From: an uncultured virus (IMG/VR IMGVR_UViG_3300043105_000228)
Lineage: Duplodnaviria > Heunggongvirae > Uroviricota > Caudoviricetes
IMG/VR virus record: IMGVR_UViG_3300043105_000228
Strand: one strand, 5' to 3'
Length of the DNA stretch: 64,000 bases
Under the pieces are notes generated by a model. It was not told the origin of the DNA. It made no database searches and saw nothing but the letters and a program-made list of their open reading frames with translations. The position numbers and the translations under genes were made by a program. Below are positions 1-33,938 of the stretch, piece by piece. Position 1 is the stretch's first letter. Each line of letters starts with the position of its first letter.

Positions 1-2885
1 TCAGAATTATCTGACTCATCTTTATCTTCTGTATCATCTTTATTTTCATCTGACTTATCTTCTTCAGATTCGCTAGGTTCAGTATTATCATCAGTCTCAC
101 CCTCTTCAGTCTCTGAGTTATCAGATTCTTCAGGAGTAGTTGATGATTCCTCACCATTATTGCTCTCAGTAGTACCAGATTCATCTGTACCATTTTCTTT
201 CTCTGAATCAGTTTCACTAGAATCAGTTGGTGATTGGTCGTCATTATTGGTCTGCTCACCACTTTCATCTGGTTCAGTTGATGGGTTTTCTTCTGATTCG
301 TCCGTATTATTAGACTCGCCATCAGTATCATTCTTATCATCTTCACCTGATTCATTACCAGAAGTTTCGTCAGTCGTTTCGGTTGATTCACCGTCACCTG
401 ATGATGACCCTGTTTCACCAGATTCATCTCCTCCTTCAGTCTCTGAGTTATCAGATTCTTCAGGGTTACTTGGAGATTCTCCACCTTCACCAGATTCATC
501 TGTATTTGTACTTGGATTTTCTTCTCCAGATTCAGAACTCTCACTATTTTCATCAGTTTCAGATTCTTTATCTGAATCATCTTTTCCAGTTTCATCTGTT
601 GCATCGGTTTCTTCTTCACCTGTTCCATCGCCAGAATCTACATTTGGAGTGTTATTGCCTTCCTCTGTATTCTCACTTGGGGTTTCACCAGATGTTGATT
701 CACCATTCTCTTCGCCACCTTCAGTTCCAGAAGTTTCATCAGTATCACCAGTTGTTGGTGTTTCTGATTCACCCTCTCCACTTGATGGTTCTTTATCTTC
801 AGTATTATCAGTTTCTTCTCCTCCTTCAGGAGTATTGGTATTATCACCATTATCACCTGATTCTGGAGTATCTGTATCACTTGGCTCTTTCTCACCCTCT
901 TCAGTCTCTGATTTATCAGATTCATCAGGAGTAGTTTCTGAACCATCACCATCTCCATTTTCAGATGTATCACCGTCATCACCTTCATTACCTGATGGTG
1001 TTTCTGAGTTGTCTTCTCCATCTGTTGATGGTTCTTTATCTTCACCAGATTCAGTACCAGTATTATCTGTACCTTCACCAGTATCTGTATTTGTCTTATC
1101 ATCATCACCTGATGATTCTTTCTCATCTGTATCATTACCATCTTCACCTTCGGATTTACCAGTTTCATCAGTATCTTCACCTGTAGATGGTTGTTCGGTA
1201 TTTTCACCGTTATCGTCTTTATCTGATTCATCTCCACCTGATGGTGTTTCTGTATCAGTTCCCTTTTCTTCAGTATCTTTATTATTGTCTTCGCCTTCTC
1301 CAGTGGTATTATTATCTGAGTCACCAGATGGTGTTTCACCACCCTCTTCTGTATCAGATTTATTTGATTCTTGTCCCTGATTATCTAAATCACCTGATGA
1401 TGAATCTTTATCTTCATCACCCTTATCATCGGTACCTTTATCTATATTATCATCTGTAGAAGGCTCTCCGGAGTGAGACTCACTATCAGTGTCTTCACCC
1501 TCGGTGTCTTTGCTACCCGGCGTTGTAGATTCGCTATCAGAACTCTCACCTGTTGTGATATCACTAATCACATAGTCTGTATTAGTTGGAGGTTCATCAC
1601 CTGAGTTGTCAGGATATGGCATCTCATCAGGAATCTGCATCTTACCAAGTTTCTTAATCCAGATATCATCAGGTTTATCACCAGTTCCAGAGATGCTAGC
1701 ATCAATGTAATCAACTGTAGCAAGACCTTTCTCGATATCGTCGATATTTGTACGGTGGTCTGTTTCGGTAACTGTACCATCAGAAGCAACTCTACGAAGA
1801 ATTTCTTCCCATACTATGGTATTATCCCATTCATCACTATCTGGCTCGTAAACATCAATAACGATTCCACTAGCTGTTCCACTACCACCATTCAAAGCTT
1901 CTTTAGCACGTACCAATTCTTTCTCGAATTCTTCCTCACCCATTAAGAGTAAGATTGTAGAATCATCCAGATTAGGTAAAGCAAAATCTGGGTCTTTGGT
2001 ACACACAAATATTGACACATTGCAGCTAATAAATCCAAAATCTGGATTATCCTTCAATGCTTCATAAAGAGCTTTTCTAGTATCATCAGTTAAAAGTGCA
2101 AGTGCATCCTTAATCTTAGGAGTACTAATAGAATTAATCTTAATAGTTGCACGTACTACTCTTATTCTGTCATAGATATTAAGATAACTAAATGGGATAA
2201 ACGAAATCTCATTTGCTCTTACATATCCATTTGCTGTTATAGTATTTACAACAGCATCTGTGCTATCATACCAAGTAACGGTATAATTTACACAGACATT
2301 TGACATATCCCAACCGGGATACATATCAGTATTTGTATACATTGCTTTCTTAACTAATGCATCTTCATCAGTACCCTCATAATCAGAGTAGTAATTATCA
2401 TAAAGAGCTGTCAAATATGAAAGTAATGCACGGTCTCTTGGTCTCCCATATGCTTGGAAGAAGAATCCATTCGTCTCCTGAACAAAGCTATGCTCATCTG
2501 GGTGATTATTCTCAAGAATACCACCCTCGAGGAATGTACTACCTTCTGAATCATTGAATTTCCAATTGATAGTATCAATATTATACGACATAAAATATGC
2601 ATCTTTATAGTAGACGCATTTGTCAGACGTTGGTCTTACATATGTCTCTGTATTGGTCCTTATCAGCACATTTAGCTGGCGCATGTAATTATTAAGATGG
2701 AAATTTTCTTGTGACCAATAAACTAATTTACCATCTGTATTTCGCTTGTAAACAAGCTGACCAGTTCGTTTATCAAGCATAACCTCATCGTTTACTGCAT
2801 GCATATCTTCATGGTGTAAATAATCCAAGAATGATGCACCGAAACGCATATTGGGGGTATATACATTGACTGTATTGTTAGCCAT
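1..2885 (-). CDS. Large putative virion protein (>961 aa, runs off the left edge): folded N-terminal ~430 aa followed by a >500-aa acidic D/E/S/T/G/N low-complexity tail
   Basis: Not in the ORF track (no stop inside the window). ATG at 2885 (MANNTVNVYTPNMRFGASFLDY...) follows SD AAGGAAAGGAG and the stop of 2889..6401. I translated the N-terminal half and sampled the tail without finding a stop; the tail reads e.g. EEDKSDENKDDTEDKDESDNS. Confidence 0.85.
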   Translation of the reverse strand, partial: MANNTVNVYTPNMRFGASFLDYLHHEDMHAVNDEVMLDKRTGQLVYKRNTDGKLVYWSQENFHLNNYMRQLNVLIRTNTETYVRPTSDKCVYYKDAYFMSYNIDTINWKFNDSEGSTFLEGGILENNHPDEHSFVQETNGFFFQAYGRPRDRALLSYLTALYDNYYSDYEGTDEDALVKKAMYTNTDMYPGWDMSNVCVNYTVTWYDSTDAVVNTITANGYVRANEISFIPFSYLNIYDRIRVVRATIKINSISTPKIKDALALLTDDTRKALYEALKDNPDFGFISCNVSIFVCTKDPDFALPNLDDSTILLLMGEEEFEKELVRAKEALNGGSGTASGIVIDVYEPDSDEWDNTIVWEEILRRVASDGTVTETDHRTNIDDIEKGLATVDYIDASISGTGDKPDDIWIKKLGKMQIPDEMPYPDNSGDEPPTNTDYVISDITTGESSDSESTTPGSKDTEGEDTDSESHSGEPSTDDNIDKGTDDKGDEDKDSSSGDLDNQGQESNKSDTEEGGETPSGDSDNNTTGEGEDNNKDTEEKGTDTETPSGGDESDKDDNGENTEQPSTGEDTDETGKSEGEDGNDTDEKESSGDDDKTNTDTGEGTDNTGTESGEDKEPSTDGEDNSETPSGNEGDDGDTSENGDGDGSETTPDESDKSETEEGEKEPSDTDTPESGDNGDNTNTPEGGEETDNTEDKEPSSGEGESETPTTGDTDETSGTEGGEENGESTSGETPSENTEEGNNTPNVDSGDGTGEEETDATDETGKDDSDKESETDENSESSESGEENPSTNTDESGEGGESPSNPEESDNSETEGGDESGETGSSSGDGESTETTDETSGNESGEDDKNDTDGESNNTDESEENPSTEPDESGEQTNNDDQSPTDSSETDSEKENGTDESGTTESNNGEESSTTPEESDNSETEEGETDDNTEPSESEEDKSDENKDDTEDKDESDNS
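103..935. repeat. Dispersed ~30-nt intragenic repeat (CTTCAGTCTCTGAGTTATCAGATTCTTCAGG, encodes PEESDNSETE on the minus strand), 3 copies
   Basis: Near-identical copies at ~104-134, ~434-464 and ~899-929; a second shorter repeat GATGGTTCTTTATCTTC (EDKEPS) at ~784 and ~1027. Confidence 0.8.
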
Positions 2886-13311: not shown

Positions 13312-13656
13312 TTACATCATTATTTCTTCAGGCATTTTTACCTTAGGGAATATTTTTACCACTGGTGTACTTTCCTTTATTAATCTTTCTTCTCGTTCTT
13401 GCTTCATCTGATTAATATATGGAGCCCATTTCTCATCCAATTCATCATCTTGAATTTCATCTTCTAATGCTTCTGGGAATTCCATAGTAGCAAAGTTATA
13501 AAGATTTACAATATCTGTGGAGGTAACACCGAACTTTCCGTCGATTTTCCCTGTAGTTCTGCTAATCATATAACGTCTAATAGGGTCAAACTTTCTAAAT
13601 AGTTTCTGTATAGCAGGGGTTACCAGTGCTATTGAGTTTATGATATCTCCATCAAA
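13312..13656 (-). CDS. rpoC: RNA polymerase beta-prime N-terminal subunit, exon 2 (starts FDGDIINSIALVTP...)
   Basis: Frame open from TTT GAT GGA GAT at 13656 into the 13312..13569 ORF; completes the catalytic NADFDGD motif. Confidence 0.9.
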   Translation of the reverse strand, partial: FDGDIINSIALVTPAIQKLFRKFDPIRRYMISRTTGKIDGKFGVTSTDIVNLYNFATMEFPEALEDEIQDDELDEKWAPYINQMKQEREERLIKESTPVVKIFPKVKMPEEIMM

Positions 13657-14081
13657 TGATCGGACTTTTTTATCTAAGTAAATACCTAGACTAAAAGATC
13701 ATTCCAACCGGACTATCTCTTCACCCTTAGTAGTTATTCTAAGGAGTGTTGTGCGCTTCGGTCTTAACCCACAGATTAAAACCTACAATCATTTTACAAA
13801 TGACCTCAGTATTTATAGCAACTCATCAAATACTGATAAATAGTCTCTACACCTTCCCACCAATCTTACTTGATTGATTTCGCTTGGCACGGATATTCGT
13901 TGCTATCCATTTCTGGACCGTAACATCTCTTACGAAGCGTATTCGCGTAGTTTGCCTCTACCTTATTTAACTTCTACCGTTAGCATGCTATTCTCTGGGA
14001 ATAACACACACCGCTTGTTGGGCGTTCACACAATTCTACATGCATGTTACCATGCACTCGGACCTTGTTGGAGATTAGTTG
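13657..14081 (-). mobile_element. Group I self-splicing intron (IA-like, 425 nt, no homing endonuclease ORF)
   Basis: P7 elements GUAGAGACUA (13850..13841) and GAAGAGAUAGUCC (13722..13710); P3 UUGUGUG/CGCACAA; Q-like AUCCGUGCCAAGC; extra stems between P7 and P3; IGS AUCUCCAACAAG-GUCCG (14075..14059) pairs exon 1 CGGAU (U.G at the splice site) and exon 2 UUUGAUGGAGAU. Confidence 0.92.
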
Positions 14082-15344
14082 ATCCGCATTTAAACCTGTC
14101 AAAATAGTTTCTGGCAAAGACAGGGTTTCCTTTTTCTCAGGAGTCTTGATATAGGCTATCTTCATTCTAAGTAATGAATATAGATTAAGAGTCGGATTTC
14201 TGTTGATAAGAATCATTGGATTCTCCGTCTCTAGAATATAATTCATTATGTCATATACATGCTGATCAAACTTAAGTGAAGATTGCCAACGTGTATATGC
14301 TGCAGCTAATGAAATATCATCATTAGTCATCAAATGATAAATAATCCTGTACTTGTAAAGTACTCTAAACGCCTGATAAGGAAGTCCAACTTCGTTCATT
14401 CTTAAAGTTGGATCTGGAATAATAACCATTCGTGATGTATAATTTAATGCACCTGAAATAAGTTTATTCCTGATAAATCCTTCCTTCTTATTAATCTGCT
14501 CAAAGTTATAATCCCAGATACGATTTACTCGTTTCTGAATACTCTGTTGGATGAGAGGTTTCTCAATCTCTTCACAACTTCGTATTGACTCTGTTAGATT
14601 AAAGAGAGGATGGATGTCTTTCTCTATACCGTTGAAGTATAGGGTATCACTTGTTGCTGATATTGGACGGAGTGCAGTTGTATAGATAGGAATATGATGA
14701 ATGAAAGCCTTGTCCTTATTTGCTTTGCAGTATTCAATCTCATCAAATTTCTTTCTCTTCTTAGCAAAGTAATCTAAGACTTCATCATATTTCTCATAGA
14801 ATCCATCTATACCAATTAAGTCATATGGACTAATTGGGTCATAATCTACTCCTGCGATTGCTTCTCTACGCATACCGTCCTTGTCAACTCGTTCTATAGG
14901 AGATATCATTAAAGTAAATGCTTTCTCACCAAGTATCTTAGTAAACATCTTATACCAGTGAGGATTGATAACTACGTTATCACCGAGCATAAACCATCCT
15001 GTCATCTTGATATTAAGAGGTCTAGCCTCTACCTTAGTACCACAGAATGGACAGATTTCTCCTTCAAACTGTTGTCCTTTAAATTCTCCACACTTACAAC
15101 GGTGTCTCTCCATGAATGCTTGCTCATCTTCATAAGAGGTTCCAAAGAGTGGTGAGTTAGAACCAAATTGGGATTTTGTTATTTTACCCTCTAGGGTAAC
15201 AGCTGCAGACTGGGTTATAATAAACCCATCTCCTGTAGCTACTGAGTTATAAAACCAAGTATCCCAATTTAATCTTGGAAATATAACCTTTCTATTTTTT
15301 CGTTTCTTTCTTGAGGCTTTAAACCTCTTCTGCTTATCTGTCAT
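14082..15344 (-). CDS. rpoC: RNA polymerase beta-prime N-terminal subunit, exon 1 (spliced product ~535 aa; probably non-virion RNAP)
   Basis: Zn-finger CKCG...CPFC, KEGFIR..., YTSRMVI, LINRNPTL, GLNAD at the exon end; early-type motif TATATTAT upstream. Confidence 0.9.
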
Positions 15345-15387: not shown

Positions 15388-17988
15388 TTAATCCCAACTT
15401 ATCGGAATGGTGCTAGCTTCGAGATTATCAAGATTAATAACATCAGTCGGGTATTGATTAAACATCTGATTGTGTGTTATAAGGAATGCCTGATTGATAT
15501 TACTGATTGCTAATTGCTCTTCTAGTACGGGAATAGTCTTTTGCCTATTATCATCATCAAAGACACTATCTACTTCATCATATAAGGCTATATTATATTT
15601 CTCCATACACTGGGCTCTAAGTGCTGAACTTATTGCCATATTAAAGAAACTCTTTTCACCTTGTGATGCGAGAGAAGCATCTGATATCTCTACTCCATTT
15701 TTCACATAAGGGATTCTGAATGCATCTTCATTGATTTCAAATTTACACAAATAAATCGAACCATCATATACGATATCAAGTAATCTATTTGCGATATCAA
15801 CTGTATCTTGGAAATATACTTCCATATAGAATAATGGTAAACCATTTCTATTAGAAGTTGCATACTTAATATTTTCCACTAGACTTAATTTATCTGCATA
15901 TTTTTGTAAATCTTTGCTAAGTGTCTGGTATCTATCCAGAGCATTTTTAGTAGTAGTTAATTGGGTTTTTAACCTTTCACTTCTAGCTGATAATTCAGAT
16001 ATAGAAGCATTGCAGGTAGCTAATTTTGTATGTGCCTGTCTGTCCTTTATGGATTTCTCAGACAAATCAAATAGCTCTTTCTTTTTACCCTCGTATTCTT
16101 CTAGGGCTTCTTTCTTCTTAAGGAGACCATCAATCTTATCTGTAAGAGAAGCTAACTCTTCTTTCTTATCAGAAAGATTATCAATCATCTCTTCTTTATC
16201 ACTAGTAATATAAGCAAACTTCTTTTCATCTTCTTCGAGCTTTCTTTTAAAATAAGCTTCTTTAGAATTAGCCTCTAATTCATTTAGAAGAGCTTCTTGA
16301 ACCTTGCACTCATTTTCTAAATTATAATATCTTTCTCTATCTGCTGAGAAATTCATCCATTTATCAATAATGGTATTATCATAGATTGGTTCAAGATTTC
16401 CTATATGGGAGAACATCTCCTCTATTAAGAAGATATCTGACAATTCCCTAGGTAATTTACTAGCAATAGGTTTAAGTTTATTGGTAATATCATCCAAAAT
16501 ATCACTTAGACCATTATATACAGCTTTCATTGAAATATAGAAAGTTTCATCCTTTGGTTGATAATTTGCATTTACTGGGGTTGCATCTTTAATAGACATT
16601 AAATCATTATAAAGACTTCTATAAGGGCAACCTAAATCAGAGCAGTTATTATTAACCTTTCCGCTATATGTATCAATAAGCTTATCTAGAATAGACATTT
16701 TATCTGGTCTTTTCTCAGACTCTAACTTTATCATGCAAGACGTAATAAAATCTGGTATATTAGAAGAATTTTGTCTCCACATTTTAAGGACTTCATTTAC
16801 AGGTCCTTTTCCATACTCGTAGAGATTATTAAGAAGCATCTGAGTATTCTTTAAAAATACTACAAAATCACTTAATTCATCATGAGATAAATCAAAACGA
16901 GTTTCATCAAACCTAGTTTCATAAGCATCATTTCTCATTCCCCTAAGTTCAATAACATGCTTTCTCATACTTGTAAGATTTAAAGACTTTTCTTCTTTCT
17001 CTATCTCAAGTTTATCATCATCTATATCATTAAGAATTTCATCTTGTCTAGTTATTATCGTATCTAGCTTAAACTGTATTCCTTCTATATCAGCTGAGAG
17101 TTTTATTCTCTTTATATTTAGCTCATCAACTTCTTTAGATACATTATCACTAGTATCATCTTCTGATAAGTCATCAATGATTTTCTCATACTTATCAATT
17201 TTTGCAGATAATTTGGACATAGTGCGTTCACCATCGTCAGGGAAGTCAATTATTTCAATCTCATATAAAATTCGACTTCTCTCATCAGTAAATTTGCTAA
17301 GTTCAGAGTCAACTCTTAAGATATCTTCTTCAAGATAAGAAATTGCTCTCTCAGCTTCATCTACATCATTTATACCAGTCTTAGTAATCTCATCAGTTAT
17401 ATGACCAATTACTGCTGATAATTCAGAAGATTGCTTTGCTTTCTTTTTATAGTATTTAAGGTAAATATCAATCTCCTCAAGTAGTTTACCCATAAATACT
17501 TTTCTCTCTGTACTTTTTGCTTTAATGAGATTGGAGACATTATCTCCTATTCTTACTAGACGTAAATAGTCTGAGTCTATTCCGAGTAATTCATAGACTA
17601 GTTGCTCAAAACTTCTTACATTACCATTCTCATTAAGCTCTTTCCCATCTACTTTTAAGTAGCTCTTTGTAGTATAGGTGTCTTTCTGTGGAAGATAATG
17701 ATGCTCTATTTCGTACTCAGTACCACTATCCTCTACGAATACAATTCTCTTGTATCCTTTTTCACCATCAATAATTAATTTGACACCAGTTCTGTCATCA
17801 ATATTGCCTAGACCAGAAAATGGTGTCATATAACTCAAGAGGCTAGTTTTTCCTCTTCCGTTTTTACCAATTATAACACAGACCACATTAGTCTGCTTAG
17901 TGAAGTCAATATTTAACCTCGTAACTCCTAGACCTGTAAATAAATTGGCGAAATTTACAAGCTCTATTTCTTTAAGTTTGATTCCCAT
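15388..17988 (-). CDS. sbcC: SbcC/Rad50-like SMC-family ATPase
   Basis: Walker A GKNGRGKTS, long coiled coils, central CSDLGCPY hook-like motif, signature ASQGEK, Walker B IALYDEVD, H-loop LITHN. Start moved to the ATG at 17988 after SD GAAAGGA. Confidence 0.9.
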   Translation of the reverse strand: MGIKLKEIELVNFANLFTGLGVTRLNIDFTKQTNVVCVIIGKNGRGKTSLLSYMTPFSGLGNIDDRTGVKLIIDGEKGYKRIVFVEDSGTEYEIEHHYLPQKDTYTTKSYLKVDGKELNENGNVRSFEQLVYELLGIDSDYLRLVRIGDNVSNLIKAKSTERKVFMGKLLEEIDIYLKYYKKKAKQSSELSAVIGHITDEITKTGINDVDEAERAISYLEEDILRVDSELSKFTDERSRILYEIEIIDFPDDGERTMSKLSAKIDKYEKIIDDLSEDDTSDNVSKEVDELNIKRIKLSADIEGIQFKLDTIITRQDEILNDIDDDKLEIEKEEKSLNLTSMRKHVIELRGMRNDAYETRFDETRFDLSHDELSDFVVFLKNTQMLLNNLYEYGKGPVNEVLKMWRQNSSNIPDFITSCMIKLESEKRPDKMSILDKLIDTYSGKVNNNCSDLGCPYRSLYNDLMSIKDATPVNANYQPKDETFYISMKAVYNGLSDILDDITNKLKPIASKLPRELSDIFLIEEMFSHIGNLEPIYDNTIIDKWMNFSADRERYYNLENECKVQEALLNELEANSKEAYFKRKLEEDEKKFAYITSDKEEMIDNLSDKKEELASLTDKIDGLLKKKEALEEYEGKKKELFDLSEKSIKDRQAHTKLATCNASISELSARSERLKTQLTTTKNALDRYQTLSKDLQKYADKLSLVENIKYATSNRNGLPLFYMEVYFQDTVDIANRLLDIVYDGSIYLCKFEINEDAFRIPYVKNGVEISDASLASQGEKSFFNMAISSALRAQCMEKYNIALYDEVDSVFDDDNRQKTIPVLEEQLAISNINQAFLITHNQMFNQYPTDVINLDNLEASTIPISWD

Positions 17989-18070
17989 AAATAATTTCCT
18001 TTCAGTCATTTATGTTACAGAATGGTGTTTTGATTTTTCATAATCAATTACTTACTCTGAACAAATAAAT

Positions 18071-33371: not shown

Positions 33372-33938
33372 TTATCTTGTGTCAGAAGTCGATTTAATGA
33401 TAACACCAAGTGCTTTTAATAACTTCTGGGTCTTCTTAATATTGCCCAAATATACTTGGGTTAAATGATCAAAATCGGAGTAGTCCATATCAGGGAAATA
33501 ATTACCCCAAAGATTCATCATATTTCTTTTATAATTCGCAAATTCAATTATCGACTCCATTGCCTCTCTGTTGCCTTTGAAAAAGACGTTGTTATAGTCT
33601 TTCTTACATGGAACTTCATCATCAAGTCTTAAATACATTACTGGATCTGTTGCATCTACACCATGAAGTTCCACAGTAATGTCATCCTCTAAAGTATTTC
33701 CATCTGCATTTTCGTCATCAATTAAGTATAACCAGCATAGTCTCTCTTCATCATCACCGACTATAACATCTAATGTGTATTTAACTAAGTCAGTAGTTAT
33801 CATAAAGACTATATCTTTAGTCATCTCAAGTGTGATAGATCTATCACAGATTGTCTCATTTGTATCGCTTTTACCAAACGATACCACACATACATCTTTT
33901 ATGTGGTCTAATAGGTTTCTGTAAGTAATTTTTTCCAT
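33372..33938 (-). CDS. 188-aa hypothetical protein
   Basis: SD GAAAGGA. Confidence 0.7.
   Translation of the reverse strand: MEKITYRNLLDHIKDVCVVSFGKSDTNETICDRSITLEMTKDIVFMITTDLVKYTLDVIVGDDEERLCWLYLIDDENADGNTLEDDITVELHGVDATDPVMYLRLDDEVPCKKDYNNVFFKGNREAMESIIEFANYKRNMMNLWGNYFPDMDYSDFDHLTQVYLGNIKKTQKLLKALGVIIKSTSDTR

Follow-up and report, generated by a model that had tools for sequence, protein, structure and literature searches.

Terminal G is commonly taken as a fixed requirement of the second splicing step of group I introns, and intron finders and annotators assume it. The locus described here raises the question whether exons may be ligated after an A instead, and what would then hold the 3' splice site in place. 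The DNA analyzed, hereafter the window, is a stretch of 64,000 nucleotides from an uncultured virus (IMG/VR record IMGVR_UViG_3300043105_000228; Duplodnaviria, Heunggongvirae, Uroviricota, Caudoviricetes), in which a group I intron interrupts, on the minus strand, a gene for the beta-prime subunit of a multisubunit RNA polymerase. The intron finishes with A13657. The reading that we favor is that of a working intron, its exons probably being ligated after A13657, with the 3' splice site held mainly by the helices P9.0 and P10.

The interrupted gene

The gene is made up of the following parts.
14082..15344, minus strand: exon 1, N-terminal part of the RNA polymerase beta-prime gene, ending ...GLNAD (open reading frame list, PF00623, 165 homologs, tblastn)
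13657..14081, minus strand: group I intron of 425 nucleotides, no homing-endonuclease reading frame (weak Rfam Intron_gpI match, homologous introns at the same codon, covariation)
13657, minus strand: omega position (last intron base), A (T on the plus strand), flanked by P9.0 and by exon 2 with P10, which fix its register
13312..13656, minus strand: exon 2, FDGDIINS... to the stop codon, 114 amino acids (identity to the intronless homologs P0002 and P0008)

In the list of open reading frames (ORFs), 454 codons (15344..13980, minus strand) correspond to the N-terminal part of the subunit, and the Pfam domain PF00623 (Rpb1 domain 2) is found in exon 1 (33.5 bits, cutoff 25.3). The closest cultured relatives detected by tblastn are beta-prime genes of the jumbo phages phiR1-37, LPJP1, BpSp, Staphylococcus phage PB50 and the phiKZ group, protein identity being below 30% in all cases. 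The PB50 homolog is annotated as a "non-viral" (non-virion) polymerase subunit. Going by the annotation of its relatives, the window gene probably encodes the N-part of beta-prime of a jumbo phage's non-virion RNA polymerase.

The catalytic NADFDGD motif is divided, NAD closing exon 1 and FDGD opening exon 2. Beyond GLNAD (GAU, its U at 14082) the ORF continues into unrelated sequence, and gene callers add 34 intron codons to exon 1 (13980..14081, minus strand; QLISNKVRVHGNMHVELCERPTSGVCYSQRIAC). Homologs of the window protein number 165, and 40 were fetched. The motif [NH]AD[FY]DGD is continuous in 26 of these; 11, the window's own protein included, read through past NAD into non-homologous tails, and three diverge before NAD. 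Tails resembling that of the window (...CERLTSGV...) recur in the read-through homologs, the reason being that each is a translation of the conserved P2-P4 core of the intron.

Exon 2 is open over 114 codons, with no stop or frameshift. It is 68% identical over 96 amino acids to the C-terminus of P0002, and 60% identical over 116 amino acids to P0008, the latter alignment reaching the last residue. No start codon is found near FDGD in the ORF list. An exon 2 in this intact, conserved state makes splicing of the gene very probable. Cultured phages gave no blastn match with either the gene or the intron, queried separately, and the intron is absent from this codon in phiR1-37, LPJP1 and BpSp.

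The splice junction

Exon 1 closes with ...GGU UUA AAU GCG GAU (last U at 14082), the intron runs from C14081 to ...GUCCGAUCA, its last base being A13657, and exon 2 opens with UUU GAU GGA GAU at 13656. U14082|U13656 is the only pair of cuts yielding NADFDGD. The base after the 5' cut is C, as against the U opening exon 2, and the base before the 5' cut is U, as against the A before the 3' cut; the junction therefore cannot be slid, and the last intron base has to be A13657, in the place of the terminal guanosine (omega-G) typical of group I introns. An initial annotation of the window, made from the letters alone, had set the 3' splice site at this position and called the omega base A. Both assignments are borne out by the uniqueness of the junction and by covariation in P9.0, which fixes the register.

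Splicing could alternatively take place after a G, the protein being non-canonical or made in two pieces. G13661 is 4 nucleotides upstream of the A, and GGA/UCC pairing could act as a short P9.0 before it. We regard this as extremely improbable: an intron ending at G13661, the nearest upstream G, leads to GAU AUC AUU UGA, as the initial annotation had stated, and hence to NAD-I-I-stop; no G within reach preserves D-F-D-G-D; G13661 is buried within the 7-bp P9.0, and P10 adjoins position 13656. Manufacture in two pieces would, moreover, have to do with an exon 2 lacking a nearby start codon.

Intron core and 3'-end helices

The structural elements of the intron are listed in the order in which they are transcribed.
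14059..14086, minus strand: P1, CGGAU (14086..14082) with GUCCG (14063..14059), U14082.G14063 wobble at the 5' splice site
14064..14075, minus strand: internal guide strand of P10, AUCUCCAACAAG, pairing at 11 of 12 positions with exon 2 (13656..13645)
14027..14033, minus strand: P3 5' strand, UUGUGUG, partner CGCACAA at 13755..13749 (covariation)
13841..13847, minus strand: P7 5' strand, GAGACUA, with G13845 in the G-binding pair and A13846 bulged (Rfam and covariation alignments)
13835..13804, 13803..13789 and 13783..13760, minus strand: three extra hairpins between P7 and the P3 3' strand (sequence reading and 455-nucleotide fold for the first two, covariation for the third)
13725..13744, minus strand: P8 hairpin, CCUUAG...CUAAGG (sequence reading, Rfam placement; the MAFFT alignment is poor here)
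13710..13722, minus strand: J8/7 and P7 3' strand, GAAGAGAUAGUCC, C13711 being the C of the G-binding pair (exact-match scan, conservation)
13703..13709, minus strand: P9.0 5' strand, GGUUGGA, pairing with 13664..13658 (first three pairs covary, 8 of 8 sequences)
13673..13690, minus strand: P9 hairpin, UCUAG GUAUUUAC UUAGA (both the 3'-end and the 455-nucleotide folds)
13658..13664, minus strand: P9.0 3' strand, UCCGAUC, including G13661 (sequence; a stop codon follows if the intron ends there)
13655..13703, minus strand: alternative hairpin across the 3' splice site, AAUGAUC (13703..13697) with GAUCAUU (13661..13655) (fold of the isolated 3' region)

Searches of the whole window against Rfam gave no match at the gathering threshold and, in E-value mode, no intron among the matches listed. 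A local search on 751 bases gave a weak match to Intron_gpI (16.9 bits, E 0.096), in which GAGACUA and GAAGAGAUAGUC are matched to P7 and J8/7 of the model, P4-P6 are aligned poorly and the extra hairpins are taken as insertions.

The fold was assessed by covariation in an alignment of eight introns, six ending in G and two (window and L001) in A. RNAalifold recovers P1, P2, P3, elements of P4-P6 and a conserved extra hairpin, compensatory changes being found in 40 of the 71 predicted pairs. In a manual structure comprising P1, P2, P3, P7, P8, P9.0 and P10, 86.2% of the cells are paired, versus 34-43% in controls with the 3' partners shifted by 1-3 columns; covariation is scored at 0.362, the controls staying at 0.107 or less. 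All five P1 pairs form in all eight sequences, one with a compensatory GC/CG change, as does the U.G pair at the 5' splice site; the L1 loop contains the internal guide sequence (IGS). The seven P3 pairs are formed throughout (100%), four with compensatory changes. P7, formed by GAGACUA (13847..13841) and UAGUCC (13715..13710), is 95.8% paired, and its G-binding pair G13845-C13711 is G-C in 8 of 8 sequences, thus canonical, in agreement with the initial annotation. The 13710..13722 segment is the sole exact match to GAAGAKATAGTCC in the window and is conserved across all related introns; further blocks common to the introns at this codon are GUGAAC..AACAA..GGUGU, GCUAACGGUA, UAGAGACUA and GAAGAKAUAGUCC. 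By eye, no core change (J8/7 GAG/GAU variant, bases after P7, P7 pocket) tracks the terminal A. Extra P7.1/P7.2 hairpins between P7 and the P3 3' strand define subgroup IA (phage type). One of those in the window intron (13783..13760) is conserved with covariation (alignment columns 571-594), and a group I intron of the phage subgroup-IA kind is proposed. A second candidate core motif, at 33806..33818, lies within an ORF and was discarded.

Both helices flanking the omega position are as initially described. P9.0 (GGUUGGA, 13709..13703, with UCCGAUC, 13664..13658) counts 7 bp, five Watson-Crick and two G.U. The three pairs adjoining omega are formed in all eight sequences, each with compensatory changes, and the omega position is thereby fixed to one alignment column. 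The IGS AUCUCCAACAAG (14075..14064), which adjoins the P1 strand GUCCG (14063..14059), pairs with UUUGAUGGAGAU (13656..13645) at 11 of 12 positions, with ten Watson-Crick pairs, one G.U and one A.A. The P10 duplex has a predicted energy of -12.1 kcal/mol, matched by 1% of shuffled loops, and its five proximal pairs are formed in 6-8 of the 8 aligned introns. When the 3' end is folded by itself, the minimum-energy structure does contain the competing hairpin AAUGAUC/GAUCAUU, which had also been foreseen (-19.2 kcal/mol; z -1.59, short of significance). Folding the 455-nucleotide precursor yields the pairing of IGS and exon 2 in place of this hairpin.

Related introns ending in A

Related loci were collected by a scan of IMG/VR with an alignment query (78 loci), and by pattern scans which added further loci; a search with the single window protein found nothing. 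The motif is unbroken in 32 of the 78 loci, and 12 carry an intron exactly at NAD|FDGD. The 3' end of an intron at this codon could be seen in 26 sequences (25 loci and the window), four of which (window, L001, L003, L101) end in A. Once near-identical copies are collapsed, 18 lineages are left. Three end in A (window, L001/L003, L101) and 15 in G (L002 group, L004, L016, L017/L104, L021, L025/L089, L029, L059, L060/L108, L070, L088, L090, L092, L105 and L106; only the 3' side is seen in L090 and L105). L001 and L003 are two contigs from different samples. L128 and L147 are uncounted, since an intron 5' end lies at the NAD site in each and no 3' end was found; L079, in which the intron is at another site, was excluded. 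A scan of genome contigs with the 3'-end pattern gave no match, and 11 of 23 metagenome pattern matches (L091, L093, L094, L095, L096, L097, L099, L102, L107, L109, L110) were dropped because they lie inside continuous ORFs. In all of these save L094 the continuous ORF (...EDIVR.LTRRKLTFDGDVLNA...) resides in large contigs, one exceeding 1 Mb, and the matches are chance ones in an unrelated protein-coding gene.

The L101 intron hosts a gene (462-1325) for a 288-amino acid GIY-YIG endonuclease (Pfam PF01541, E 9.5e-13), the reading frame of which passes through the P7 5' strand; a mobile intron can therefore also end in A. Related introns were further detected, by a scan for the P3-P5 core, in a second gene, encoding a paralogous, virion-type beta-prime and linked by tblastn to the "viral (virion) RNA polymerase beta-prime subunit" of Staphylococcus phage Madawaska and its relatives. 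In the L112 group (L112, L114, L118, L121 and L123, five IMG/VR contigs from separate samples, identical over 495 nucleotides) the intron (about 1543-1967 in L112) is inserted at ...MGAD-F|DGD and also ends in A. The 5' cut follows GACUU and the end is ...CAAAUAA, the terminal base being A under either possible junction; no junction preserving D-x-D-G-D ends in G. The intron of the L125 group, in the same virion-type gene, ends in G.

This recurrence bears on the quality of the window sequence. A consensus or assembly error, the true minus-strand base at 13657 being G and the intron an ordinary omega-G one, would take a single transition. Three freshwater DNA runs contain 5-10% of the sampled words of the stretch, and their reads and contigs yielded only pieces of relatives, 151-216 nucleotides long, with no joints and none extending over 13657. 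Yet A terminates the introns of three other lineages, L001/L003 showing it in two contigs and the L112 group in five, with separate samples as their source, so that the A of the window needs no error as explanation; we hold such an error to be very improbable.

One contig from a freshwater run (X1) is a close relative of the intron core at 13702..13813, with 2 differences and 3 small indels over 112 nucleotides, and diverges completely just 3' of 13702. The P9/P9.0 end evolves far faster than the core.

P10 strength and the terminal base

The initial annotation suggested that unusually long P10 and P9.0 helices compensate for the missing G. For 21 introns, a P10 energy was calculated by pairing the loop that precedes the P1 3' strand with the opening 18 bases of exon 2 and taking the best duplex. 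The A-ending introns of L112 (-18.2 kcal/mol), the window (-12.1), L001 (-11.5) and L101 (-7.8) rank first, second, third and sixth, while energies range from -0.8 to -9.0 kcal/mol among G-ending introns. By a rank-subset count which ignores kinship, ranks as high as these have a one-sided chance of 4 in 5985. The P10 half of the suggestion is thus backed by a comparative correlation in a small, non-independent sample. The P9.0 half fits the window (7 bp) and L001 (6 bp) and fails in L101 (3 bp), lengths being judged by eye, and P9.0 does not consistently track A. The link between P10 and terminal A agrees with the effect described in PMC2588497, where P9.0 and P10 strongly raise the affinity of the Tetrahymena ribozyme for its guanosine substrate.

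Under the favored reading, the first step would be ordinary, with GTP in the canonical P7 site attacking after U14082 of the P1 U.G pair, and the second would occur after A13657 rather than after a G. The 3' splice site would be placed mainly by the 7-bp P9.0 directly before the A and by the 12-position P10 directly after it, the partner of P10 being the invariant FDGD codons. P9.0 and P10 may jointly compensate for a G pocket that binds A weakly, and exon ligation would still proceed, though probably more slowly than in the G-ending sisters. That splicing occurs, at what rate, and by which means the missing G is compensated, are deductions from sequence comparison. More tentatively, the guide of introns at the ultra-conserved DFDGD codons of viral RNA polymerase genes could be able to evolve so long and dependable a P10 that the 3' splice site is set by P10 and P9.0 instead of the docking of a terminal G, which would become dispensable, A having replaced it repeatedly, in at least 3-4 lineages; this generalization is possible, if rather doubtful.

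Origin of the terminal A

The tree of intron sequences is largely unresolved, 10 of 16 inner branches being open. The host-gene tree, built on the flanking protein, rejects a clade of the three A-ending loci (approximately unbiased (AU) test, p 2e-20) as well as a clade of window and L001 (p 0.007), and places L001 beside the G-ending L106/L002 group as its sister (support 100/97). Some of these introns are mobile, and the host tree need not therefore equal intron history. The cores of A-ending introns are now only 64-66% identical. Either A arose several times, or it was kept across strongly diverged introns; both readings speak for its being tolerated in working genes.

Points against ligation after A13657

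Several results weigh against the favored reading. Base 13657 rests on one assembly, and no RNA run was found among the sequencing runs sharing words with the window. The Rfam score of the intron (16.9 bits) is far below the 50-bit gathering threshold of RF00028. In the fold of the isolated 3' end, a 7-bp hairpin over the 3' splice site competes with P9.0. Two G-ending introns, L060 (-8.6 kcal/mol) and L021 (-9.0 kcal/mol), have strong P10 helices; the P10 correlation is a lead, not a proof, as the 21 introns behind it are related and not independent of one another, and a longer guide loop lowers the energy in general. The intron tree does not reject a single origin of A (AU test, p 0.31). With the G-binding pair unchanged, a terminal A should, going by classical mutant work on Tetrahymena and phage introns, strongly impair exon ligation in vitro; in that work a terminal G-to-A change reportedly blocks ligation, and altering the P7 pair switches specificity. 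In a 2026 study of an IStron library, the alternative 3' splice sites of these group I introns all terminated in G (PMC13521648).

Some of these points would equally fit a decaying gene, in which a G-to-A change abolished exon ligation and the polymerase copy is no longer made whole. An A next to an unchanged G pocket is expected, from mutant work, to be a poor substrate, and no RNA run for the stretch was found. Against decay stand an exon 2 kept open to its last codon and 60-68% identical to intact homologs, core helices preserved through compensatory changes, and the catalytic Mg-binding motif which the subunit bears; the independent A-ending lineages likewise retain open second exons. Decay is judged very improbable.

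Comparison with known introns

The introns of the phage T4 genes td, nrdB and sunY belong to subgroup IA2, are self-splicing, reside in essential genes and have extra hairpins between P7 and P3; their 3' splice sites, marked by omega-G, are selected with the help of P9.0 and P10. They resemble the window intron in being phage-borne, in interrupting an essential gene, in the P7-P3 hairpins and, on the favored reading, in self-splicing with P9.0 and P10 helping to select the 3' splice site, and differ in the terminal G. Tetrahymena introns with omega-A, in which the P7 G-binding pair was altered to accommodate adenosine-like ligands, were reportedly described in 1989 by Michel et al., and engineered ones are said, going by its title, to be the subject of a 1991 work by Been and Perrotta. 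These share with the window intron an A as 3' splice-site nucleotide. Their P7 G-C pair is altered and that of the window is unchanged, so a switch of specificity does not apply here.

The G-ending sisters (L002, L106, L004, L029, L017, L025, L060 and others) share with the window intron insertion site, P1 design, core and P9.0 register, and differ in the terminal base and in a weaker P10 (-0.8 to -9.0 vs. -12.1 kcal/mol); several are longer, at about 1.1-1.3 kb, and contain endonuclease ORFs, as against 425 nucleotides and no such ORF in the window intron. Introns of the phiKZ type (compare PMC11620839) are reportedly also of group I and inserted in the catalytic region of RNA polymerase genes of jumbo phages; they belong to another phage lineage (<30% protein identity) and encode HNH endonucleases.

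The initial annotation referred to organellar omega-A introns, and these are on record. The mitochondrial ND5-717 introns of hexacorals (sea anemones, mushroom corals) end in A, and the exons are perfectly ligated in vivo (PMC8146996 and PMC6545197). In the coral, according to PMC6545197, splicing is less efficient than that of a G-ending intron of the same genome, more than 70% of transcripts being unspliced, and no circles are formed. ND5-717 and the window intron are alike as natural group I introns with A as last base. The former is mitochondrial, vertically inherited, giant, with genes inside P8, possibly back-spliced, and bears no sequence relation to the phage intron; its splicing was measured, the window intron being known from sequence alone. 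Passages of the two papers on ND5-717 state no link to P10 length. A 2025 paper on an intron database has introns ending with, "most frequently, the terminal G" (PMC11835236). A literature search for omega-A in phage introns found none, which is weak evidence of absence, the Greek letter being unsearchable. Omega-A is a rare variant, already published for ND5-717 and, as far as found, new for phages.

The coral data invite a comparison with the proposal of the initial annotation that slow or factor-dependent ligation acts as a timer or switch of the polymerase subunit for late transcription. In a variant of this idea, A may have been selected for blocking G-dependent circularization or reverse splicing. 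The recurrence and persistence of A across diverged lineages, the inefficient, circle-free splicing of the coral intron and the hairpin contending for the 3' splice site would all suit an adaptive A. What the proposal says of rates, factors and timing is speculation, however; with G at the same codon in 15 of 18 lineages no general need for a timer is apparent, and neutral drift under a strong P10 explains the same pattern. An adaptive A is held to be unlikely.

Should P10 and P9.0 indeed make the terminal G dispensable in this intron family, natural ribozymes would exist which join exons without omega-G, the G pocket being unaltered, and A might be favored by hindering G-dependent circularization or reverse splicing, or by slowing ligation. 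The only published natural exception found is one peculiar mitochondrial intron. That of the window is small, ORF-less and easily synthesized, and it ends in A although its G pocket is canonical; together with its close G-ending sisters and the A-ending relatives with long P10, it provides a natural series for gauging to what extent P9.0 and P10 can replace omega-G. In annotation, gene callers cut this essential polymerase subunit short at the intron, and boundary rules requiring a final G would misplace the 3' splice site of the window.

Neighboring introns and genes

A second group I intron (core GAAGAUAUAGUCU...) closes about 38 codons upstream of the NAD-site intron in L101 (positions about 1-95), and about 8 codons upstream in L017 (seen in L117); very short exons therefore occur within the same gene. 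L079 has an intron of the same kind (about 1500-1566, minus strand) that stops directly before AAU GCA GAU UUC GAC. This is 9 nucleotides upstream of the site occupied in the window, so the motif receives introns at neighboring positions.

Directly upstream of the polymerase gene the window holds an ORF of 873 amino acids (15388..18009, minus strand), opening with the Walker-A-like sequence GKNGRGKTS and featuring many long charged, coil-like stretches; by eye, it resembles an ATPase of the SMC/Rad50 type.

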